Numbered from the stretch's first letter, positions 30,308-41,619 are shown. The stretch is 64,000 bases of DNA from Promethearchaeati archaeon (GCA_013166775.1 JABLTJ010000004.1:96001-160000), one strand, 5' to 3'. A program made the numbers and translations. Notes: generated by a model from the letters alone, not told the origin.

Positions 30308-33300
30308 TTACGATTTCCTGAATTTAGGTCCAGTTCTATAAAGAACAACTGACGTAACTACGAAACCAATTGTAACTAAGAATAAAGAAGCAAAAGCACC
30401 TATGGTACGGTTTGCATCTGCATTACTGATTTCATCTAGGAAATTCACCAGAAGGTATTCATAGAACTTAGAAGTTGCTCTGTGAACATCTTCTCCCCAA
30501 AAGAGAGTTCCCATGTTACCTGTTAATCCAGGATTAGTTGTGTGCCATGTTCTGTATCTATCACTTTCAGCTAAAATATCAGGATCTATAATCCATTCAT
30601 CTCTAACAGCGTCATAATAACCATATAACGTTGCATTAAGAAATGCATAAGCTTCTGAAAATCCTTCCACTCCTGTACAGTACTGTACTCTATCTTCTCT
30701 TAGAATAACACTTCCAGTGACAGGCTCTGCTCTCATATTTTGCATATGGAAAGGATCTCTGGAAAATCCAGGGAGAGAGTGCGTAAGCTCAAAATCACTA
30801 GGGCGGAAATCAAGATCATACATTCTATTCCATCTTCCTACGTGTATGAAACTAGAGTTCAGAAAGTTGGAAGTTATCATCCAATAAATATCTGTCATTG
30901 CTAATTGTCTGAGCGGTACAGTAGCTTGAGCAGTATAAACTAGAACATCTTGATCATAGAAGATAGCAGTATCTGTCAGAGAAGAATACGCAAATGGTCT
31001 AAAGAAGAATTCACTCCATTGTTGTCGTAAACCTTTTTCAGCATAAGGATAAACAGCAAAATTGTCGTAAGTTTCGTTAAATATTAATTCTGATTCTATA
31101 AGTGTCCAATCATTAAATTGAATCTTTGAATCTTGTCTCCAACACTCAACGAATGCATGCAACTCATCTCGTTCAAGTTCTTCAAAAGTGCCACCAACCC
31201 CTAACTCTAAATGGACAAGACCTTCAGAACCATCAGCAAGGTAAATATCATCTAGATCAGCAAAAATACCATATGCTGAACCTAAATGGTCAGTTCCATC
31301 AAATCTGTGTAGTTCTGTTAGGGTTGCAGGTGCAGTTGTACTTACAATTGTGAATCCATAATCACCTTGTGTAAGATAAGCTCTTGCTGTACCTTCATCA
31401 ACATAGAGATTGTTGAAATAAGTCTCTGCTGGATCGTAGGAGAATTGATCTAATTCTGTGAGAATACCATCAAAATCAACACTAAAAGTAAGTAATCCTT
31501 CTATTTGATCTAAAACATAAACAGTACTACCTTTAGCTTTGATATCAATAACGTTTTTGAGATTTGGAAAATCAGCTGCATTATAGTGTAACACATCACC
31601 TAAATAACCTGTAGCTTGCTCAATTTCTACAACATTGATTCCATCTGTACCTAGTGCTATATATGCATGTCTTCGATTATCGTTAACATCAATTGCAATA
31701 GCAGTACCGTTTAATGCTTTGGTCTCTATAGTTGTACTTATTGCTCCTTCTGAACCAATTGTATCGCTTATTCTAGCATATGTTATTCCATATACACCGT
31801 TAGCGATATACAGAGCATCAAATGGAAGACCTTCTCCCATGGAAGAATAATCTATATCTCGCATGTCAGAGTCGCCAAAATTACTCCATTGATCTACTTC
31901 ATATATTGAGGCTGGATTTGTTGCATTCAACACTTCTAATCCTCTTGCTCCTTCAACAGCATATACATATCCATCAACTACTGCAAAACCTAATATTTGG
32001 CCATCAGATCCAAAGGCTTGTTCTGTAGTTGTAACATAATCACCATATTGACCAATAGCCATGAACAATGGGTGAGTCATATTAACAATCTTAATATCTG
32101 TACCTCCTTCAAGAACATAAGCTAAATCATCTTCCACAATGACATCTGATGATTGAGAGTTTTCATAGTATGGGATGTTTGCAATCCCCAGAATTTTTCC
32201 GACATCTTGAACATCATATGTACCTAATTGCTCAGCGTAGAAAAGATCTTCAGTCCAATCAATACTATCACTTGTGAGGGTTTGATTTATAATGAATGGG
32301 AATCTTCGATTTCCAAGTAAAGGATCCTCAATACCTAAGATCCATTCAAGAGCTGTTCTTTTGCATACGTAAGAAATCTTGTTTTCATATAGCCAGTCAA
32401 CAGAAGGCCTACCTAATAGATATTGCAAATAAGCAGCAAAAGATTGTGCTAATTCTCTTTCATATACTGTATCTATATCATAAATATCTGCGAGAAGTTG
32501 TTCCACATCAACAATTAGATCGTTTGCATCATAATCCAATCCTTTCACTAAATCAATGAAGAATTTAGCTGAACCTGACTCTCCTTTTAATATAGAATAA
32601 TCATGACCATTATATTGTGCATCATACAAGATTTTATAGCTTGTGGCTTGGTCAAAATCAAGATCTGGGTATGCAGGTCGAACACTTAACCAATTATGAG
32701 GTAAATAAATACCCAAATCTAATAATCCTTCTTCCTCTGCATAGGTTCGATTAAGAACTGCATAGGCTAGTTCACTATCAGAATATACAACAGGATCACC
32801 CTTGAAATTTAAGAGTTCTTTCTGAAGAAGGAAGGCTGCAACATAAGCTTGAAAACCATATTCTGTTCCATTACCAAACTCATTAATATAATAAGGCCAC
32901 ATATAATTAAAATTCAAAACTGCTTCATCACCTGTTAAGGTTGAGGCTGTTGCGTTGAAAAGATATTGCTTTCTATAGGCATATACTATATAATCTCCTT
33001 CTATATCATATTCTAGAATTGTTTTGTTTATTATAATATCAAAGATAAGATCACCTTGAACGAAGTAATAAGCAATTGGGTTACCATAATCAAGAAAACC
33101 TGCACGATCACTTACATTGAAGAACTCAAAGAATGCTTGATCATAGAATAGTGAATCATTTTCCCAGCCACCTGTATACATCCACTCTGAATTCGCTCCT
33201 GAATCATCAAAGGGATCAAAATCATCTTCTGTTAATTTCCCAAAAATATTTAATCTTTCATTTATGTCCTCAATTTTATTCACAGAGCTTTGTGGGAGAA

Positions 33301-33379
33301 GAAGTCCGATTGTAACTGCTGAACCCACGAAAATAGTTATAATTAATATTCCTAAAGCTGTCCGAAATTCTGCTCGCAT
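30308..33379 (-). CDS. CD36/scavenger-receptor-B-like two-TM protein with inserted LVIVD beta-propeller
   Basis: TM at both termini; FFNVSD, RKQYLF..S, RTALEWILGIEDPLL, SLPGF and EPVTG......RVQY motifs; seven Y(V/I/L)...G..G(L/I) LVIVD-like blades. Confidence 0.72.
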   Translation of the reverse strand: MRAEFRTALGILIITIFVGSAVTIGLLLPQSSVNKIEDINERLNIFGKLTEDDFDPFDDSGANSEWMYTGGWENDSLFYDQAFFEFFNVSDRAGFLDYGNPIAYYFVQGDLIFDIIINKTILEYDIEGDYIVYAYRKQYLFNATASTLTGDEAVLNFNYMWPYYINEFGNGTEYGFQAYVAAFLLQKELLNFKGDPVVYSDSELAYAVLNRTYAEEEGLLDLGIYLPHNWLSVRPAYPDLDFDQATSYKILYDAQYNGHDYSILKGESGSAKFFIDLVKGLDYDANDLIVDVEQLLADIYDIDTVYERELAQSFAAYLQYLLGRPSVDWLYENKISYVCKRTALEWILGIEDPLLGNRRFPFIINQTLTSDSIDWTEDLFYAEQLGTYDVQDVGKILGIANIPYYENSQSSDVIVEDDLAYVLEGGTDIKIVNMTHPLFMAIGQYGDYVTTTEQAFGSDGQILGFAVVDGYVYAVEGARGLEVLNATNPASIYEVDQWSNFGDSDMRDIDYSSMGEGLPFDALYIANGVYGITYARISDTIGSEGAISTTIETKALNGTAIAIDVNDNRRHAYIALGTDGINVVEIEQATGYLGDVLHYNAADFPNLKNVIDIKAKGSTVYVLDQIEGLLTFSVDFDGILTELDQFSYDPAETYFNNLYVDEGTARAYLTQGDYGFTIVSTTAPATLTELHRFDGTDHLGSAYGIFADLDDIYLADGSEGLVHLELGVGGTFEELERDELHAFVECWRQDSKIQFNDWTLIESELIFNETYDNFAVYPYAEKGLRQQWSEFFFRPFAYSSLTDTAIFYDQDVLVYTAQATVPLRQLAMTDIYWMITSNFLNSSFIHVGRWNRMYDLDFRPSDFELTHSLPGFSRDPFHMQNMRAEPVTGSVILREDRVQYCTGVEGFSEAYAFLNATLYGYYDAVRDEWIIDPDILAESDRYRTWHTTNPGLTGNMGTLFWGEDVHRATSKFYEYLLVNFLDEISNADANRTIGAFASLFLVTIGFVVTSVVLYRTGPKFRKS

Positions 33380-33556: not shown

Positions 33557-34858
33557 TTATTCTTTTTTATCTTCTTTTAATATTCGTTGAATCTTGTAGG
33601 TATCATGAAGCCAAATATCTTCTAATTTTGCTGTATCAAGATATCCTACAACTTCATTTTCTTCATTTAGCAACTCAATAATTACTTCAGATAGAATTCC
33701 ATACCTATTCAACACTTGCTTTGGTATCTCTAAATACGATAAAATTCCTCTAATAATAGCGCCGTTATTTCTGCGTTTTTGAATCGAAAAAACAACATCA
33801 AGATTTGTATATCTTTTTCTTATTTCATGATAATCCTCAGCTGAGAGACCCTCAGGTCCAGATTGAATAATAATGTAACCTCGAGTAGGTTTTTCCTTAA
33901 TATCATAACTTTCTAGAATCCCTTTTTGATCAATAATTCCTGATAAGAGAGGATTATTATCATATATATCCAAAGAAAGAAGATTGCACAATCCTTTTGC
34001 ATTATTGAAAGTTTTTGCAAAACTTCCAAAATCTGTATGGTAAAATTCAGAAGAATTTTGGGTTCCTATCATGAAATCTACTAATAGATTAGCTTCTCTG
34101 TGATACATTTTCTCCTTGAGAATATCAAATGGGATATCATTTGGATTGTTCTTTACTATTTTTGATTCATCCACAAGTATGAAGGGTAAGCTTTCAGTAA
34201 AATCTTTCTTCATCAAATAGTGAATAAAGGATAAAACTGAAATAGAATCTCTAATGATCTCATCAGTTTTTTCCACTTCAGCTGAATCTTGTATGAACAT
34301 AGGGAGAGTCAAAAATAAGACAATTTGGATATCTTTTTCTTTCAGTATCTCTGAAATTTTGTAAATTGCTCCAAGACTAAAAGCATCATTATCCAAAACA
34401 AGGAAGATAAAAGACACGTCTCTGAATATTCTTTCTATATAACTTGAAATATTCATTTTGTTTGATTCAAACCATTTAATTCCTCTTGAAAATGTTTGTT
34501 TATTGATTGGAGTTTCAGGTAGTTCTAGTGTAGGTATTTTCAAGTTGATCATTTCAGAGTCTGATTTACTGGCTAACAATAATGATTCAGGGAAACTGCT
34601 TTTAATTCGGTTCTTTATCACTGTGAGTATGGAACATCCCCTCTTCCCTGAGAAAATAAAACCAATTGATTTTGTTTTCTCTTCTCCTTCCAGATAAAGA
34701 GTATTTGATTTATCACAACCGATCAAAACAGAATCAGTTTGAAGACTGTCACTAATGATGTTTTCATGATAGAATTGATATAGTCCATTATACTTCTTAG
34801 GAACATCAATACCCACTTTTTTTCTTCTCCTTCCTAAAATAGATTTCATTCTAGACAT
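33557..34858 (-). CDS. degenerate tubulin/FtsZ-family paralogue lacking GTP-binding motifs
   Basis: Aligns blockwise with 36357-37499 (PFILVDESK/PILLFDNEK, AKGL/ARGL, TRGYIII/KRGYLTI, IRGILS/IRGVLT) but GGGTGS is replaced by DNDAFS. Confidence 0.65.
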   Translation of the reverse strand: MSRMKSILGRRRKKVGIDVPKKYNGLYQFYHENIISDSLQTDSVLIGCDKSNTLYLEGEEKTKSIGFIFSGKRGCSILTVIKNRIKSSFPESLLLASKSDSEMINLKIPTLELPETPINKQTFSRGIKWFESNKMNISSYIERIFRDVSFIFLVLDNDAFSLGAIYKISEILKEKDIQIVLFLTLPMFIQDSAEVEKTDEIIRDSISVLSFIHYLMKKDFTESLPFILVDESKIVKNNPNDIPFDILKEKMYHREANLLVDFMIGTQNSSEFYHTDFGSFAKTFNNAKGLCNLLSLDIYDNNPLLSGIIDQKGILESYDIKEKPTRGYIIIQSGPEGLSAEDYHEIRKRYTNLDVVFSIQKRRNNGAIIRGILSYLEIPKQVLNRYGILSEVIIELLNEENEVVGYLDTAKLEDIWLHDTYKIQRILKEDKKE

Positions 34859-34980
34859 TGTTTCTTCAAATACAGATAGTCCTCGTTATTTTTAAGACTT
34901 TTCGACTAAAGATACATAGGAGTATTTTAATGAATCAATACGAAATTGTTAAAAGTAAGCGCACGGTATAGAAACTTGTT

Positions 34981-36354
34981 ATGGAGTCGAATCTCACTAA
35001 ACCAACAGAGGTCAAAGCTAAGATTATTCAACCTGACAAAGTTGAACTTCCAAAATTTGAATTTGAAGATATGTTAATTGAGCATTATAAAAAATATCCA
35101 AGAACGGCAGGGATGATAGAAAATCCAAGGTACTTGGAAGCGTTGCAGAATCCTTTCAAGAAATTCTATCTTGTGCCCTTAGCTCTTTTTAGTTTAAAGA
35201 TGAATACGATTCTTTCATTAAAGTGGAAGGATTATCTTAAATTATGGTTATACATAGTGATTATGTCAATACCTACATTTATAATGATATATTTTCCGTT
35301 TGTGGGAAAAACAGATCCCCTTACTGGAAACAGGGTGGTCGTAGATGTAACTGTATCAATATACACGCCTATCCTTATAGCTGTTCTACTATCGTTATTC
35401 TATCTAAAATTCACACATGATGGTTTTCTAGGTTTAGTTTTGGAAAAAAGAGTGGAGTGGATAGAAGAGCCAGTAAGGAAGTATTATTCCAAATTTTATG
35501 ATAGAAAAATACCTAAAAATCCCTTGATAATCTTACTAGCATTAGGAACGGGATTAGCAGTTAATATTCCATTAATATTATCAACTCCGAGTATTTCTCT
35601 GTTTCCAGAAAATGTTCCATTATCACAAACATTTGGAATAATTTCTTGCATATTAAGCCCTATTTGGTTTTACATATTTTATGTTGAAACCTATTACTTA
35701 ATCCAAAATACAAGGTTATATTCAAAGATTCTTGATTCAATAAAAGAAAAAATCGAAGTTTATCTTAATGAATACGGCACACTACTAACAAGAGAAAACT
35801 ATGATATCATATGGGCTTTGGGTGATAAATGGAGCAAAGGTCGTTCAATAAGGCAAATAGAAAATATACCTGTTTCAGGTATCTTATCTGCCTTGGTAAT
35901 TACAATTGCTATGATGATGGGAAGCATCAACGCTATCATATATGGTATTGTAGGCAGGATGCCAGAGATAGGATTTAGTCTAGGAAAATTACTGGATAGC
36001 TCTGCACCTTGGACAGTAATTGTGATTGTAATTTCAGCTTTGCTCGCAATAATTCTGTTTTTAGTAGTCTTCCTACCTTTGAATTCACTTAGAAAGAAGT
36101 TAAAGAAATTTAAGATTAAAGCTCTAATAGAACTAGATAATTACATTTTCGCGAATGTAGTAGAATTTGAAACTAGATATGCAGAGGAAGCGAGAGAGGA
36201 ATCAGTAACAATGTTTCAATTGAGAGAATATATTGCAGGTATGAGAACATTCCCGATTTCAACAAATAAGATCTTTAGAACCATTGTAGCAATAGTTATT
36301 TGGATTGTGAATATTCAAAAAATCTTTAGAGCAGTCACACAAACAGGGGTATAA
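34981..36354 (+). CDS. multi-pass membrane protein (about 6-7 TM), function unknown
   Basis: Hydrophobic helices separated by charged helical loops; 2 bp from the tubulin-family gene. Confidence 0.75.
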   Translation: MESNLTKPTEVKAKIIQPDKVELPKFEFEDMLIEHYKKYPRTAGMIENPRYLEALQNPFKKFYLVPLALFSLKMNTILSLKWKDYLKLWLYIVIMSIPTFIMIYFPFVGKTDPLTGNRVVVDVTVSIYTPILIAVLLSLFYLKFTHDGFLGLVLEKRVEWIEEPVRKYYSKFYDRKIPKNPLIILLALGTGLAVNIPLILSTPSISLFPENVPLSQTFGIISCILSPIWFYIFYVETYYLIQNTRLYSKILDSIKEKIEVYLNEYGTLLTRENYDIIWALGDKWSKGRSIRQIENIPVSGILSALVITIAMMMGSINAIIYGIVGRMPEIGFSLGKLLDSSAPWTVIVIVISALLAIILFLVVFLPLNSLRKKLKKFKIKALIELDNYIFANVVEFETRYAEEAREESVTMFQLREYIAGMRTFPISTNKIFRTIVAIVIWIVNIQKIFRAVTQTGV

Positions 36355-36356
36355 CA

Positions 36357-37499
36357 ATGTCTTGGTTAAAAAGAAAATTATTCAAAAAGAAAATCTCAAT
36401 CGCAGTAATCGGAATAGGAAATGCGGGTTGTAAGATAGGTGATGAAATTATTCATCAGCTCAAGGAGAGCAATATCAATGTAAAATCTTTAGCAATTAAT
36501 TATACAGATAATTTTGAACCAAAAATAAAGCATTTTGCTGAAAATTTCTGGTTTGGAAGCCAAGATAATCCTTCTTCTAATAGTAATCTGGAGGATGCAT
36601 GGAATGAAATACAAAACAAAGAACTTAATCTAAAGAACAAGCTAGAAGACGTTGTATTTTACAAGAAAGGAGATAGAAAATCTGAAGATGATTTAGCTCT
36701 ACATCTTATTGTGGGAAGTGGAGGAGGAACAGGAAGTGCAGGAACAATGATAGCTAGTAATCTAATATTAGATATAACAGGTGACGCTCCTACAATCATC
36801 TACATTGTTCCTGAGAAAGATGAAGCTTCACTAATTCAGTATAATGCTGCAACCGCACTACATTTTCTAGGGTTCAGCGCAAAGGGTCCTCAATCTCCGA
36901 TTCTTCTATTTGATAATGAGAAACTAATGAAGATTCTCAAAGATGAGAAAATTGATGAGATTCTAAATATCTCCAACAATATTTTAGCTGAAATATTAAC
37001 TACGACAATATTAGCAGCTTTACAGGAGAGTATTCACCAAGAATATAATGCAGATTTGAATGACTTCTTCTCCTCCTTTACTAAAGAAGCAAGAGGATTA
37101 GGTGTAATTGTCTCTGTAGATAAGGAATTTGAAACTCTAGAGAAGGCTCAAAATGTTCGATTTTCTGATATTTTTTTCAACGAGCTAGATGAAAGTTCAA
37201 GTTTATCAGCTGATGTTACTAGAGCAAAAAGAGGATATTTAACTATAAATATGCCTACCACTTATCAATCAACATTTGAGACTAGGAAGATTGTAAAACG
37301 ATTTGAGAAAGGATCTATCAAAGTAGCATTAAATTCTATTGAAGAACCAGTTCTCACAATAAGAGGAGTTCTTACAGGTATTCATCCAGATTATGTAGAT
37401 AGATTCTGGGAAATTCTAGAAAAAGGCAGAGATGGTCGAAATGAAATTATAACTAAAGAAGAGAAAATTAGACAATCCCATATAGATTTGAAACATTAA
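36357..37499 (+). CDS. tubulin/FtsZ/CetZ superfamily GTPase
   Basis: T1 GIGNAGCKIG, signature GSGGGTGSAG, FDNE, T7 loop NADLNDF. Confidence 0.88.
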   Translation: MSWLKRKLFKKKISIAVIGIGNAGCKIGDEIIHQLKESNINVKSLAINYTDNFEPKIKHFAENFWFGSQDNPSSNSNLEDAWNEIQNKELNLKNKLEDVVFYKKGDRKSEDDLALHLIVGSGGGTGSAGTMIASNLILDITGDAPTIIYIVPEKDEASLIQYNAATALHFLGFSAKGPQSPILLFDNEKLMKILKDEKIDEILNISNNILAEILTTTILAALQESIHQEYNADLNDFFSSFTKEARGLGVIVSVDKEFETLEKAQNVRFSDIFFNELDESSSLSADVTRAKRGYLTINMPTTYQSTFETRKIVKRFEKGSIKVALNSIEEPVLTIRGVLTGIHPDYVDRFWEILEKGRDGRNEIITKEEKIRQSHIDLKH

Positions 37500-37604
37500 G
37501 AATTGCTTTTCTTCTCAGTATTTTTCTGTTTTTTACAATTTTCAAAAAAGTGAAAACTTATAAATATAGGCATTTTATCAGCCTAATTATAAACAGTGAG
37601 TAAA

Positions 37605-40600
37605 ATGACAAAACCTTCTGTTAATATTGAAAGTAAACTAAAAAGTAGAATTGAGATCACTCGAGTTTTTAATTTAATTCCTTGGGTAAAGCTAAAGCGA
37701 AAATTCAAAGGAGATGTTAAGGAAGATAACATTACAAGATACCTTTACTCAACTGATGCTAGTATATACAAAGTTAAACCTTTAGCAGTTGTACAACCAA
37801 AAGATGTGAAAGATGTTCAAAAAGTTATAAAATTCTGTGCTGAGAATAGAATACCTCTTCACGCAAGAGGAGCAGGAAGTGGAGTAGCAGGACAAGCGCT
37901 CGGAGCAGGGATAGTTATAGATTTCACTAGATTTATGAACAAAATATACGAGATAAATCCAGAAGAGGATTATTTCATAGCTGGACCAGGTCTGAAGGGT
38001 TCAACTTTGCAAAGAAAGCTTGATGTTTACAATAAATATATTCCACCTGATCCAAGCAGTTTTGATTATGCAACGCTAGGAGGAATGATAGCAACCAATG
38101 CTTCTGGAGCACATTCTGTTATGCATGGAGATTTCGATAAGTGGGTAGAGGAGTTAGAAGTAGTTCTTCCTAATGGTGAGATAATTACAATTAAAGAATA
38201 TGAGATGGAAAGTGACGAATTTAAATCCATACTCAAAGCCGATACAGCAGAAGCAGCGATTTATAAGAAACTTATTAAAATTTGGAAAGAAAAGAAAGAT
38301 TTGATTTTTGAATCTTATCCTCATCTTCCACACAATAACACTGGATATGAATTGAGAAATACGATAAAAAATGGCAAAATCAATCTAGTAAGAATGATAG
38401 CTGGATCGGAAGGGACATTGGGTCTTATAACAAAATTAAAAATGAGAATAACAACAAAACCAACCTACAAAGTTCTGGCATTAGCTTTGTTCGATGATAT
38501 TAAAAAAGCAGGAAAATCTATACAATTCATTCTTGAGCAACAGAAAGCAGCAATTGAGTTGTTAGGCAAGAAACTAATAGGCATGACAAGAGAAAGATAT
38601 CCTTCAATTGATGCGAAATTGCCTAAAGAATTGGATACAATGCTGCTTATAGAGTTTGAAGGCGAAGACCTCGACGAACTCAAAACATTAGCTGCTAATA
38701 CTGAAGAGATTTTGGTAAGAAAAGAAAAACTTGCTTTCAGTTATCGAGCATCAGATGATCCTAAGGAACAAGAAGAGCTTTGGGAAGCAAGAAAATCAGC
38801 AGTACCTTTGTTATATAAGATAAAAGGGGAAAGAAAAATAATTGCACTCTTTGAAGATGCAGTTGTTCCAACAGATTATTTAGGAGATTATGTGGCCGAT
38901 TTACAGAAAATCTGTGACGATTTAGAAATCGAACTACTGGCTTATGGCCATGCTGGAAAAGGATTGTTACATAATCGACCTCTCATAAATATGAAAGATG
39001 CTGAAGATATAAGAAAAATGGAGATATTAGCAGAGAAGAGCTTTGAATTAGTTCAAAGATATGGAGGAGTAGTAAGCGGAGAACATTCTGATGGAAGAGT
39101 AAGAGCTAAATTCATAAGAAGACAATATGGAGATGAATTTTTCAATCTCCTGCACGAAGTGCGATCTACTTTTGATCCTTACAGAATTTTCAATCCAGAT
39201 AACAAAATAACTGATAATGAAAATGTGTTGATGGAGGATTTTAGATATGGAGCTGATTATTCAACTATCAAACCAGATACTTTGCTAAGCTGGGAAGAAG
39301 ATGAGTTCAATACAACAATCGAAACATGTTTTGGATGTGGAAAATGTGGTATTGGTACTACTCATCTAGTTATGTGTCCAGTGTATAAAGGAAAGCATGA
39401 AGAGTTTGTTCTTCCAAGAGCTAAGAATAACATGATGAGAGGGTATCTTGAAGGAGAATATGGCTATGATGAACTAATGAATCATGAACTCTTCGAACAC
39501 ATAATCTATAATTGCATAGGATGCCAAAATTGTTCTTTTGAATGTCCAAGTGAAGTCGATACAGGTAAAGTAATGGTTGAAATGAAATCCCAATATATGG
39601 ATTATCATAGACCAAAAATTTGGAATTTCTTTCCAAGATCTATCTATCCAAGAGAAGCATATAAGCTATTTAGAAGATCTGCACATCAAACACACCAATA
39701 TATTAGAAATAAAACACTAGCAAATATTGGATTCATAGGAAAAATGGCATCGCTTTTTGCGCCTATATCAGGATGGGCAACCAGCTTTATAGGAACGAGA
39801 TTTGGTATGGATTTAGCAGTTGGAATATCCTACAAACGTAAAATGCCTAAGTTCACAAACAAGACTTTTCTCAAGTGGTGGAAAAAACATAAGAAATCAG
39901 AAGAATATCTCAAAGAAGGAAAGAGGAAAGTTGTCTATTACCACGGATGTTCTGCTAATGCTATTACTCCTGATGTTGGTATAGCAACAGTAGAATTGAT
40001 GGAAAAACTAGATGTCTCTGTTGACGTTTGTGACCAGAAATGTTGTGGCAGTCCAGCATTTTCCTATGGAGTGAAAGATGTCTATTCTAAATATGCACAA
40101 TTTAACGTAGATGAACTATACAAATATGTTCAGGATGGTTATGACATAATTACAAGTTGTACAAGCTGTGCATTAGCTCTAAAAGTCGAATTCGAAGAAA
40201 TGATAGATGATTCAAGGACAGAAAAAATAGCAGAACACACATACTTGACAACAGAATTTGTAAATAAATTAATGGAAGAAGGAGAGGTAGATTTAGAATT
40301 CGGAGCAATAAACGCAAATGTCGCTTATCACACTTCTTGTCATTTGAGAGCTCAAAGAGATATTACATCTGTATCATATGAACTATTGCAAAAAATCCCT
40401 GATTTAGTTACTGAAAAAGTAGTTGATACATGCTGTGGTATATCAGGAAGCTGGGGAATGAAGAAAGAAAATTATGATGCATCAATGAAAATTGGTGAAC
40501 CCATGTTTGATACAATTTCAAAAGAAAACATAGATTTTGCCTTAACAGATTGTCCCACTTGTGCCATGCAAATTGAACATGGAACCAAAAAGGACGTTTC

Positions 40601-40643
40601 CCATCCAGTAATTCTTCTGAACAAGTCTGTTGAAAAAAAATAA
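37605..40643 (+). CDS. FAD-linked oxidase / Fe-S oxidoreductase fusion (GlcD-GlpC, YdiJ-like)
   Basis: RGAGSGVAGQ, GSEGTLG, GHAGKG.LH, SGEHSDG, two 4Fe-4S motifs and two CCG domains. Confidence 0.9.
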   Translation: MTKPSVNIESKLKSRIEITRVFNLIPWVKLKRKFKGDVKEDNITRYLYSTDASIYKVKPLAVVQPKDVKDVQKVIKFCAENRIPLHARGAGSGVAGQALGAGIVIDFTRFMNKIYEINPEEDYFIAGPGLKGSTLQRKLDVYNKYIPPDPSSFDYATLGGMIATNASGAHSVMHGDFDKWVEELEVVLPNGEIITIKEYEMESDEFKSILKADTAEAAIYKKLIKIWKEKKDLIFESYPHLPHNNTGYELRNTIKNGKINLVRMIAGSEGTLGLITKLKMRITTKPTYKVLALALFDDIKKAGKSIQFILEQQKAAIELLGKKLIGMTRERYPSIDAKLPKELDTMLLIEFEGEDLDELKTLAANTEEILVRKEKLAFSYRASDDPKEQEELWEARKSAVPLLYKIKGERKIIALFEDAVVPTDYLGDYVADLQKICDDLEIELLAYGHAGKGLLHNRPLINMKDAEDIRKMEILAEKSFELVQRYGGVVSGEHSDGRVRAKFIRRQYGDEFFNLLHEVRSTFDPYRIFNPDNKITDNENVLMEDFRYGADYSTIKPDTLLSWEEDEFNTTIETCFGCGKCGIGTTHLVMCPVYKGKHEEFVLPRAKNNMMRGYLEGEYGYDELMNHELFEHIIYNCIGCQNCSFECPSEVDTGKVMVEMKSQYMDYHRPKIWNFFPRSIYPREAYKLFRRSAHQTHQYIRNKTLANIGFIGKMASLFAPISGWATSFIGTRFGMDLAVGISYKRKMPKFTNKTFLKWWKKHKKSEEYLKEGKRKVVYYHGCSANAITPDVGIATVELMEKLDVSVDVCDQKCCGSPAFSYGVKDVYSKYAQFNVDELYKYVQDGYDIITSCTSCALALKVEFEEMIDDSRTEKIAEHTYLTTEFVNKLMEEGEVDLEFGAINANVAYHTSCHLRAQRDITSVSYELLQKIPDLVTEKVVDTCCGISGSWGMKKENYDASMKIGEPMFDTISKENIDFALTDCPTCAMQIEHGTKKDVSHPVILLNKSVEKK

Positions 40644-40734
40644 AAAAGAAAGCTAATAATTAGCTTTCCAATTTTTCATTTTTCATAAGAAGACAAATAA
40701 TATAAAGTTATGATGTAACAGCTTCTTGAAAGCT

Positions 40735-41619
40735 ATGAGTTCAATGAACGACTGCCCCTACTGTGGTAGACAAATAAGAGCGTCATCAAAGTTCTGCAAA
40801 TATTGTGGTCAAAGCTTGAAGATATGTCCAGAGTGTCAAGAATTAAATAACCATGATGACGCATTTTGTGCTTTATGTGGGACAGATATTTCTAAAGTAG
40901 AAGCATCAGAAACAATTAGATTAGATGAAAGAACTGAAGAGGTGAAAGAACAAGGACAACAAAAAATTGTCATGTGGCCTCCATTATCTCCAGTAAGACA
41001 AATACAACCAAAACCACAATTTAGTGTTTTTGAAGAAGGGACACCCTATAAACCAACATCCATAAAATATCCATATAGTAGAGTACGAGCCTTAGGATTT
41101 TTAGGGGGACCATTACCTACTTCTACAGTATTCAGTGCCACAATTGAGGCATTAGGACTTGCATTAGCTTTAATTGCAGCTGGTGTAGCAATTATTGGGA
41201 TAGGATTAGCTTTCTTTCAGATTCTTATTTTACCAATCATGGCAGGAGTTCTAGGTGGAGCACTTCTACTATCAGCACCATTTTTTGGAATCTATTATGT
41301 CAGTTCAAATTGGTTATACAAAACATTTCAAATCAAGAGGCCAGTTAAATCAATAACAATCATTTGGAATTATGCTTTGGGTACCTTGCTATTCTCTTTG
41401 GTGGGATTAATATTCGCCCCTGTTTTCATTCAAGGCAGTGCTTTATGGATTTCTCTTGCAGTTCTTGGTGGAATAATCTATCTAATGGGTCTAATAATCA
41501 TACCTTTGAAAGCTTTTCTTGCTGATCTTGTATATGTAAAAGCAGCAATGAAACTTCGGGATGAAGGAAAGGACACTAAAGAACAAAAAGAGGATGAAAA
41601 ACCAAAAACCGAAGATTAA
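40735..41619 (+). CDS. double zinc-ribbon membrane protein
   Basis: CPYC, CKYC, CPEC and CALC at the N-terminus; about four C-terminal TM helices. Confidence 0.8.
   Translation: MSSMNDCPYCGRQIRASSKFCKYCGQSLKICPECQELNNHDDAFCALCGTDISKVEASETIRLDERTEEVKEQGQQKIVMWPPLSPVRQIQPKPQFSVFEEGTPYKPTSIKYPYSRVRALGFLGGPLPTSTVFSATIEALGLALALIAAGVAIIGIGLAFFQILILPIMAGVLGGALLLSAPFFGIYYVSSNWLYKTFQIKRPVKSITIIWNYALGTLLFSLVGLIFAPVFIQGSALWISLAVLGGIIYLMGLIIIPLKAFLADLVYVKAAMKLRDEGKDTKEQKEDEKPKTED

Follow-up and report, generated by a model that had tools for sequence, protein, structure and literature searches.

A lineage-specific tubulin-superfamily pair with one pseudo-GTPase member and a dedicated membrane protein in Heimdall-group archaea

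Tubulin-superfamily polymers of Asgard archaea are under intense study as precursors of the eukaryotic cytoskeleton, and the searchable literature on them covers FtsZ1 and FtsZ2, OdinTubulin and the AtubAB pair (PMC12583498, PMC8956254, PMC13394414, PMC13371889). Here we describe a further family, which almost all genomes of one Heimdallarchaeia order possess, starting from a 64,000-nucleotide stretch (the window; G+C content about 32%) of a Heimdallarchaeaceae genome of the Heimdall group of Asgard archaea (Promethearchaeati archaeon, GCA_013166775.1 JABLTJ010000004.1:96001–160000). The listed sequencing runs that contain it are three DNA metagenomes of marine sediment, all belonging to a single study and two of them possibly its source, and include no RNA run. 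Three genes are at issue: A (33557–34858, minus strand, 433 amino acids), a pseudo-GTPase of the tubulin/FtsZ superfamily (TSF); M (34981–36354, plus strand, 457 amino acids), a polytopic membrane protein of an orphan family; and B (36357–37499, plus strand, 380 amino acids), which its motifs mark as a probable divergent TSF GTPase. Together they constitute a lineage-specific tubulin-superfamily pair with one pseudo-GTPase member and a dedicated membrane protein, of which we found no mention in the Asgard tubulin-like literature that could be searched; a literature search likewise returned no paper naming both 'Heimdallarchaeaceae' and 'FtsZ'. Rare among prokaryotic tubulin-like systems are the hard-wired membrane-protein partner, the paralogue that has no nucleotide site yet is under purifying selection, and the existence of natural variants with a dead A, a dead B or no A. 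These variants allow direct tests of the origin and role of non-catalytic subunits, and the small size of the three proteins puts expression and reconstitution within reach.

By both sequence and structure, the nearest solved relatives of A and B are TubZ/RepX, CetZ and FtsZ. TubZ/RepX, the type III partition GTPase of Bacillus plasmids and phages (PDB 4ei7, 2xka, 3v3t), aligns with the A and B profiles of sister families over about 315–350 residues, and its long C-terminal helix contacts the next subunit. It operates with a TubR adaptor and a tubC centromere on plasmids or phages, whereas the present genes are chromosomal and comprise two paralogues, one without a nucleotide site, together with a membrane protein. 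Family scans found no DNA-binding family among the neighbours of the module, centromere repeats not having been searched for, and the context—a membrane protein, with pyruvate kinase, CD36-like and Top6B neighbours—rules out a TubZ partition system.

CetZ, a determinant of euryarchaeal cell shape (PDB 3zid, 4b45, 4b46), gives the highest structural Z score for A (28.3, to 3zid) and template modelling (TM) scores of 0.74/0.83 for B against CetZ2 (4b45), and one NCBI record labels a B homologue 'Tubulin-like protein CetZ'. Sequence matches to CetZ, however, reach E values of only about 1e-4 to 1e-9, those to solved CetZ structures spanning 7e-5 to 2e-9; the T1 motif of CetZ is GxGQxG as opposed to the GIGNAG or GIGGAG seen here; and the present system includes a membrane protein of its own and a paralogue that is dead. 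Membership of CetZ is defined by placement inside the CetZ clade; A and B form a separate clade among representatives that are themselves unlabelled.

The T7 loop of β-tubulin faces the N-site GTP of α-tubulin, and in the complex model described below the acid-less T7 loop of A similarly faces the GTP of B. As in α/β-tubulin, BtubAB and AtubAB (PMC13394414, PMC13371889), a pair of paralogues is co-encoded, with a hydrolysed and a non-hydrolysed site. Yet B matches OdinTubulin (7evb) with an E value of 0.0021 over 110 residues and the sister-family B profile matches AtubA (9f6t) at 0.083, scores that rule out membership of the tubulin, AtubAB or OdinTubulin groups; α-tubulin binds GTP, whereas A has no nucleotide pocket and is dispensable in two species, and the asymmetry of the pair flips between lineages. 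A first reading of the window, made from its sequence alone (the sequence-only reading), had drawn a loose analogy to the specialization of tubulin subunits, which stands as a matter of logic but not of descent: A and B make up a clade of their own, and the solved structures that match them best in sequence are TubZ, CetZ and FtsZ, not tubulin.

In terms of function, the closest analogies may be the non-exchangeable site of α/β-tubulin and the plant protein ARC3. The FtsZ-like domain of ARC3 is not known to contain GTPase motifs. ARC3 acts in plant chloroplasts by directly inhibiting assembly of the Z ring (bioRxiv 10.1101/2024.01.08.574726, PMC12232670), and offers a parallel as an FtsZ-derived, non-polymerizing paralogue that regulates the assembly of active FtsZ and is tied to membrane proteins, although its origin is unrelated and its domain make-up, including a MORN domain, is different. 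Two further groups of relatives also invite comparison. The 'Asg.Tub' proteins of Heimdall- and Thor-group archaea, which are CetZ-like (PMC9871819), are likewise uncharacterized Asgard tubulin-superfamily paralogues, but they are about 455 amino acids long, carry T1 and T4 motifs of GIGECGSN and GGGTGCG, derive from the genomes LC-3, B3-JM-08 and Thor, and have been described with neither a membrane-protein operon nor a dead paralogue; they are different proteins from A and B, and we reject the identification. FtsZl1 and FtsZl2 (Tubulin_2, PF13809), for which a role in membrane remodelling with membrane proteins was proposed (Makarova and Koonin 2010, PMC2875224), resemble the present system as divergent FtsZ-like proteins with proposed membrane-protein partners. 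Their gene context of a von Willebrand factor A (vWA) protein, a GTPase and OmpA-family proteins (PMC2875224) is absent here, however, and B falls below the PF13809 cut-off (15.3 bits against 27).

B carries the GTP-binding signatures of the superfamily in full: T1 (IGIGNAGCKIG), T4 (SGGGTGSAG), T6 (QYNAA) and T7 (YNADLNDFF) are all intact, those of T1, T4 and T7 as the sequence-only reading had claimed. The motifs GIGNAG, SGGGTGSAG and QYNAA are conserved across 28 homologues, and the second acid of the T7 loop (NADLND), D236, is nearly invariant. The protein has a basic N terminus, MSWLKRKLFKKK, and a long C-terminal helix. Its match to the Pfam Tubulin family (PF00091; E 1.3e-7) reaches 32.5 bits on the protein against a cut-off of 33, and 36.9 bits in a genome scan that included in-frame neighbours; for B homologues PF00091 is listed by the source database. 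These homologues (n = 58, 55–92% identity) are, where named, all from Heimdall-group metagenome-assembled genomes, as are the named homologues generally. The FtsZ equivalog model TIGR00065 scores B at 27.6 bits against a cut-off of 295.2, so that B is not FtsZ by that model, and with the PF13809 score this rules out both FtsZ and Tubulin_2 membership. An AlphaFold2 model of B (predicted local distance difference test (pLDDT) 84.6) retrieves TubZ, CetZ and FtsZ in Foldseek at E values of about 1e-16 and TM scores of 0.62–0.74, with TubZ 4ei7 at the top.

A is paralogous to B, a pseudo-GTPase that has the tubulin/FtsZ fold. The protein has no match among Pfam, NCBIfam or PDB sequences, and its BLASTP alignment to B is marginal (E 0.055 over 206 amino acids). 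Profiles are decisive: hhalign joins the A and B families collinearly over 307 columns (86.8% probability, E 4.3e-6) and, by way of sister-family A orthologues, over 346 columns (99.8%, E 5.7e-30), so a chance likeness is rejected. The in-order alignment of the two proteins put forward by the sequence-only reading is therefore real, the profile alignment pairing exactly the motifs it had quoted. Thirteen of the 14 sister-family A orthologues match PF00091, and their profile finds TubZ (5.4e-12) and then FtsZ and CetZ (about 1e-9) among solved structures; they score 34.4 bits on TIGR00065, and the best of them reaches E 4.6e-5 on PF13809, below the cut-off. The tubulin fold, whose absence from A had been named beforehand as a possible refutation, is present in the AlphaFold2 model (pLDDT 74.3, predicted TM score 0.78). 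Its best Foldseek match is TubZ 4ei7 (E 1.3e-16), and all of the at least 500 matches at E values of 0.001 or better, including all 50 listed, belong to the TSF; a VIA comparison gives Z scores of 28.3 to CetZ 3zid (root mean squared deviation 3.3, 316 aligned residues), 26.4 to TubZ and about 26 to FtsZ. Both the A and B models contain the Rossmann-like nucleotide domain, the H7 helix and the C-terminal GTPase-activating domain by which the fold is recognized.

The fold of A occupies residues 62–433, preceded by an N-terminal extension (residues 1–61) that is conserved, basic and predicted to be disordered. At the motif positions A reads SGKRGC (T1), LDNDAFSLG (T4), SISVL (T6) and HTDFGS (T7). 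The glycines of T1 and T4 and the T6 asparagine are lost in all 18 Heimdallarchaeaceae A-family sequences examined, and the second T7 acid is replaced by serine or asparagine in 17 of the 18, extending to T6 an earlier claim that the glycine loop and this acid had gone. We reject the reading of A as a pseudogene in decay, since at least 24 genomes keep its frame intact and its ratio of non-synonymous to synonymous substitution rates (dN/dS) is 0.17.

M, read initially as a protein of about six to seven transmembrane segments, has seven hydrophobic segments in a Kyte–Doolittle scan. It matches the M proteins of sister families (phmmer E 1e-23 to 1e-40). Its conserved soluble motifs include NTxIY, NYEVV, TPGLSI..IP and, after a transmembrane segment, FKxKALxELDP. 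Its look-alikes in a protein atlas are unnamed clusters and one in which RcgA appears on 20% of members (score 0.91), a lead only. The stop codon of M and the start codon of B are 2 nucleotides apart, so that the 2-bp gap of the sequence-only reading is confirmed by the coordinates of the open reading frames, and M is the obvious candidate for an anchor or organizer of B.

The three genes share one phyletic range, a single order-level clade of Heimdallarchaeia, which bears out the co-conservation expected of them. We scanned A and B profiles over 83 genomes of the class and an M profile over 399 from the phylum as a whole, 46 of which contain M, and only where A or B occurs. In the Heimdallarchaeaceae (f1), A is present in 26 of 30 genomes, B in 29 and M in 29. 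The corresponding counts are 1, 0 (at a contig end) and 1 for the single genome of family f2, 3, 3 and 2 of three for f3, and 10, 12 and 12 of twelve for f4. Each gene occurs in 1 of 22 genomes of f5 and in none of f6 or f7, and the other Asgard families (f8 onward), scanned for M only, have none. The stray f5 case (L022; G052:C52, 4,055 bp), from the sole genome beyond the order to have the three genes, encodes f4-like proteins in a bin with 8% contamination, which makes horizontal transfer and misbinning equally likely explanations. Searched exhaustively with a profile, 1.84 billion representatives yielded 25 proteins at E values of 1e-30 or better, with a gap between the family (full-length members at 1e-84 or better) and all else. 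When clustered at 50% identity, Heimdallarchaeaceae B proteins form one cluster and A proteins about 14. The nearest outliers, P0096 and P0099, on short contigs with no M gene adjacent, are uninformative.

In 44 genomes M and B share a strand, with M immediately upstream. In f3, f4 and the f5 stray, 13 loci have a tight same-strand operon of A (about 450 amino acids), M (about 450) and B (about 390), usually beside pyruvate kinase, and contig ends truncate three further loci, that of f2 included. The genes form a single-copy chromosomal module, in a core context with pyruvate kinase and Top6B, in 44 of the 46 genomes of the clade. In the Heimdallarchaeaceae, A is separated from M–B in three arrangements with spacings of 1.5, 3 or 6 kb, and remains within 6.2 kb of them in about 20 genomes in which both are on one contig. 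There it is directly upstream of, and co-directional with, a gene for a protein of about 1,000 amino acids in 14 of 14 loci; in the window this is a putative CD36-like/LVIVD surface-protein gene (30308–33379, minus strand), 177 nucleotides downstream of A on the same strand. The CD36-like gene occurs in 29 of 30 f1 genomes and, with this query, in none of 16 from f2–f4. The view of the three genes as one module thus holds for the sister families, where they form an operon, but in the Heimdallarchaeaceae A stands outside the M–B unit and is paired with the CD36-like gene.

A quick maximum-likelihood tree of 83 rows, some of them long, places A and B in one clade apart from the genome's own FtsZ and from 38 other superfamily representatives, which are unlabelled and include no labelled CetZ (SH-aLRT support 98). 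Heimdallarchaeaceae A groups with sister-family A (97) and Heimdallarchaeaceae B with sister-family B (89); the A stem is long (1.29), and tip lengths are 0.6–1.25 for A and 0.12–0.35 for B. Asymmetry within the pair recurs, and its direction differs between lineages. In f1, A has lost the T1/T4 glycines, T6 asparagine and second T7 acid (18 of 18 sequences, with one T7 exception) and B is canonical. In f4, A is canonical (GIGGAG, GSGGTGVG, DLNEF) and B has T1 (S/A)(C/A)GDxG and T4 GxGATG. In f3, A is intact or partly eroded and B has lost T4 (IISSDGFSTAFA, LVSSGTFSS), the glycine loop being gone from the B proteins at L026:4629–5807 (SSDGFS) and L027:2737–3915 (SSGTFS). The T4 motifs of the metagenomic B-type clusters P0092 and P0093 are SAGATS and SGGTSS. 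Reciprocal degeneration of this kind is the pattern expected of partners in an assembly that needs one live site.

Selection has moved within A. Against the closest genome, G020 (one pair, NG86 method), dN/dS is 0.17 for A, 0.07 for M, 0.047 for B and 0.17 for the CD36-like gene, so that A is still constrained, about 3.7 times less than B. The best-conserved elements of B and of sister-family A are those around the nucleotide—S1–T1–H1, S4–T4–H4, S5–T5 and H5 (relative entropy 0.65–0.93)—and the same elements in Heimdallarchaeaceae A are average or worse (1.01–1.16). The best-conserved parts of that protein are instead S7, S8, S9–S10 and T7–H8 of the C-terminal domain (0.49–0.85), together with its disordered first 61 residues. 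The constraint on A has moved out of the nucleotide domain and into the C-terminal one.

The ends of the proteins also vary. Sister-family A proteins (L018–L032) have a conserved acidic/basic C-terminal tail with a (K/R)RRxG(D/E) peptide, and sister-family B proteins end in an LExxLxxLF-like peptide; both tails, which could be partner-binding peptides, are missing in Heimdallarchaeaceae. The strongly basic N termini (+5 to +7 over 20 residues) have helical hydrophobic moments of 0.36–0.6, at the 59th–97th percentile within each protein. These moments being unremarkable, we make no claim of an amphipathic membrane-targeting helix like that of OdinFtsZ1 (PMC12583498).

We modelled B together with residues 62–433 of A and GTP in three runs, with three controls. 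The interface score ipSAE was 0.88 in three of three runs and 0.00 in the best control. In the calibration of the tool the mark was attained in 58 of 80 solved complexes and in 2 of 110 mismatched pairs, counts that are only rough here. Contacts agreed between runs to at least 96%, with partner pLDDT of at least 83. In the predicted complex the T7 face of A sits on the GTP face of B in the canonical longitudinal geometry, B contributing T1 (22), residues 52–54 and 69–75, T5 (154–161), residues 191–203 and the C-terminal helix (356–380), and A contributing T7/H8 (269–289) and C-terminal domain residues 325–362 and 375–389. This orientation agrees with the independent finding that selection preserves the bottom domain of A and not its top face. 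Of the roles suggested for A in the sequence-only reading, that of heterodimer partner survives in part: a longitudinal A–B contact is predicted, but A would be an accessory and not an obligate half, being absent from two species that keep M–B.

Taken together, we favour, at a probability of about one half, a three-gene cytoskeletal module in which filaments of B assemble at M, with A as a non-catalytic cap or modulator; GTP binding, polymerization, the M–B contact and capping are inferred. In this model, B would be the nucleotide-competent subunit in the window genome, binding GTP and polymerizing head-to-tail by B–B contacts through its intact T7 loop. Since D236 is nearly invariant and only B has a pocket here, the T7 loop of B would meet the nucleotide-bearing pocket of another B. 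M, whose gene would be translationally coupled to that of B, would organize B at the membrane. A keeps the fold, its former nucleotide pocket released from constraint and the T7-side domain still subject to it, and would dock, T7 face first, on the GTP face of B. With neither a catalytic acid in its T7 loop nor a pocket of its own, it would cap the filament end or block hydrolysis, holding B in a non-hydrolysing state, as a dispensable modulator or terminal subunit. Paired with the CD36-like gene in Heimdallarchaeaceae, A may further link the surface protein and the B system. The cellular role may lie among shape, membrane remodelling and division.

What is shown for A, M and B is homology, fold, motif state, co-distribution, gene order and selection. 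Several observations weigh against the proposal. B has no FtsZ-type glycine-rich T3 motif in its sequence, so that GTP turnover is not assured. M has no Pfam family and no relative among solved structures (best E 0.048), and the sole basis for its contact with B is gene adjacency. In the complex, longitudinal dimers of FtsZ, TubZ and tubulin have already been solved, so the high score may reflect likeness and not specific binding, and the comparison set the A–B pair against unrelated control proteins, not tubulin-like ones. Interface residues of A are weakly enriched in conservation (entropy 0.99 versus 1.16, p 0.04), and those of B are less conserved than the rest (1.55 versus 0.92). The genomes that share the genes are close kin with generally kept gene order, pyruvate kinase too being a constant neighbour, and the linkage is weaker evidence than it appears for that reason. 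In G008 (C23:2800–4900, L037) and G012 (C114:13400–15500, L038), the order is B, M, pyruvate kinase and CD36-like gene with no space left for A, and an A profile found no A anywhere in these assemblies (86% and 89% complete); the function of A is dispensable there because A is absent while M–B and the CD36-like gene are retained. The two are species of the same genus.

We hold more tentatively to a stronger form of the module, at odds of clearly less than even: that A and B form an Asgard-specific cytomotive filament on the membrane protein, with a convergent tubulin-like division of labour in which the dead subunit has flipped between families. If true, heteromeric polymers of the tubulin superfamily, here coupled to membrane remodelling, would have been tried out a second time, in the class of archaea to which the closest relatives of eukaryotes belong.

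Somewhat less probable is an obligate A–B heterodimer that builds alternating ABAB protofilaments as do α/β-tubulin, BtubAB and AtubAB, with a structural, non-hydrolysed GTP at one interface and a live subunit that varies by lineage. Ancient paralogues in one clade, A and B share an operon in sister families, one or the other partner has degenerated reciprocally across families, and the predicted contact, with the acid-less T7 of A on the GTP of B, resembles the tubulin N-site. A strict polymer of this type would, however, have no hydrolysable site in Heimdallarchaeaceae, yet the T7 acid of B is nearly invariant there; because this catalytic acid has been kept, B–B contacts are likely and strict ABAB alternation is unlikely. 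A also evolves about four times faster than B, lies outside the B transcription unit in the window and has been lost at the locus in the two species that keep M–B.

We regard as unlikely, to a slightly greater degree, that A has been exapted in the Heimdallarchaeaceae and now serves the CD36-like surface protein as a scaffold or adaptor in the cytoplasm, its nearness to M–B being leftover synteny. The place of A upstream of the CD36-like gene in 14 of 14 loci, kept through three M–B rearrangements, would fit this account. The CD36-like gene and the degeneration of A are both specific to this family, the two genes have the same dN/dS (0.17 each), and the conserved, disordered, basic 61 residues of A look like a binding peptide. 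All of this, however, stems from one ancestral event and counts as a single observation; two species keep the CD36-like gene but have no A, the best-conserved domain of A is the one that contacts B in the model, and A stays within 6.2 kb of M–B in about 20 f1 genomes.

A role in cell division, with B, with or without A, replacing a missing FtsZ2 and M serving as the membrane anchor, appears improbable. Closed genomes of the family (G006:C1, G007:C1) do have one canonical FtsZ plus B, no second FtsZ being found by PF00091 in closed Heimdallarchaeaceae genomes; the solved structures nearest to that FtsZ are the FtsZ1 proteins of M. jannaschii and Odinarchaeota, and many archaea need two FtsZ paralogues (PMC12583498). 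A single FtsZ has nevertheless been reported in some Asgard archaea (PMC9871819), and A and B branch apart from the FtsZ clade (SH-aLRT 98), with B at 27.6 bits on an equivalog model whose cut-off is 295 and on which the canonical FtsZ of the window genome scores 349. No division gene is adjacent to the module at the loci examined, and SepF, the usual archaeal anchor, is present in Heimdallarchaeaceae (G000:C73:37354–37830); the f4 genome G045 (93% complete) yielded no SepF.

A TubZ-like type III DNA-segregation system is very hard to credit: TubZ/RepX 4ei7 is the best solved-structure sequence match of sister-family A (5.4e-12) and B (7.8e-15) over nearly their full length and the top Foldseek match of both models, and the long C-terminal helix of B touches the next subunit in the complex, but the genes are single-copy in a core chromosomal context in 44 of 46 clade genomes, with a polytopic membrane protein in the middle position, no TubR-like DNA-binding gene nearby and no recognizable plasmid or provirus among the loci examined.

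Two conserved blocks, with one TTAAAAG box towards each gene, mark the divergent intergenic region between A and M (34859–34980). Among four genomes with the same arrangement, ATACGAAATTGTTAAAAGTAAGC is invariant upstream of M and CTTTTAAGA (reverse complement TCTTAAAAG) is invariant upstream of A. The TTAAAAG boxes lie about 30–45 nucleotides 5′ of the A and M start codons, although A itself is only about 40% identical across genomes. Judged by sequence and position, these blocks are candidate archaeal promoters.

On the other side of B, the window encodes a 3-kb fusion gene of flavin adenine dinucleotide (FAD)-oxidase, 4Fe–4S and CCG parts (37596–40643) and, beyond it, a double-zinc-ribbon protein (Pfam DZR; 40726–41619, plus strand) with four transmembrane segments and a charged tail. 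By tblastn, a homologue of the latter directly follows B in L001 (9223–10179) and follows B and a TnpB insertion in L002, and sister-family loci gave no match. The double-zinc-ribbon protein may be a fourth, family-specific component. IS605-type TnpB genes (OrfB_IS605/Cas12f-like TNB) lie beside the module at L001:12489–13748 and L002:328–1578, the latter between B and the zinc-ribbon gene.

In f4, a PlsY-type glycerol-3-phosphate acyltransferase gene (PF02660, a phospholipid enzyme of bacterial type) is convergent to B in the two loci tested (L018:1951–2601 and L024:1599–2258), and similar open reading frames of about 216–220 amino acids occupy this position in L020, L028, L029, L031 and L032. 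This neighbour may mark a link to membrane lipid synthesis or may reflect synteny alone. At a further f4 locus (L023:1607–2563), a lipid kinase of the diacylglycerol kinase (DAGK)/YegS type stands in the place of PlsY.

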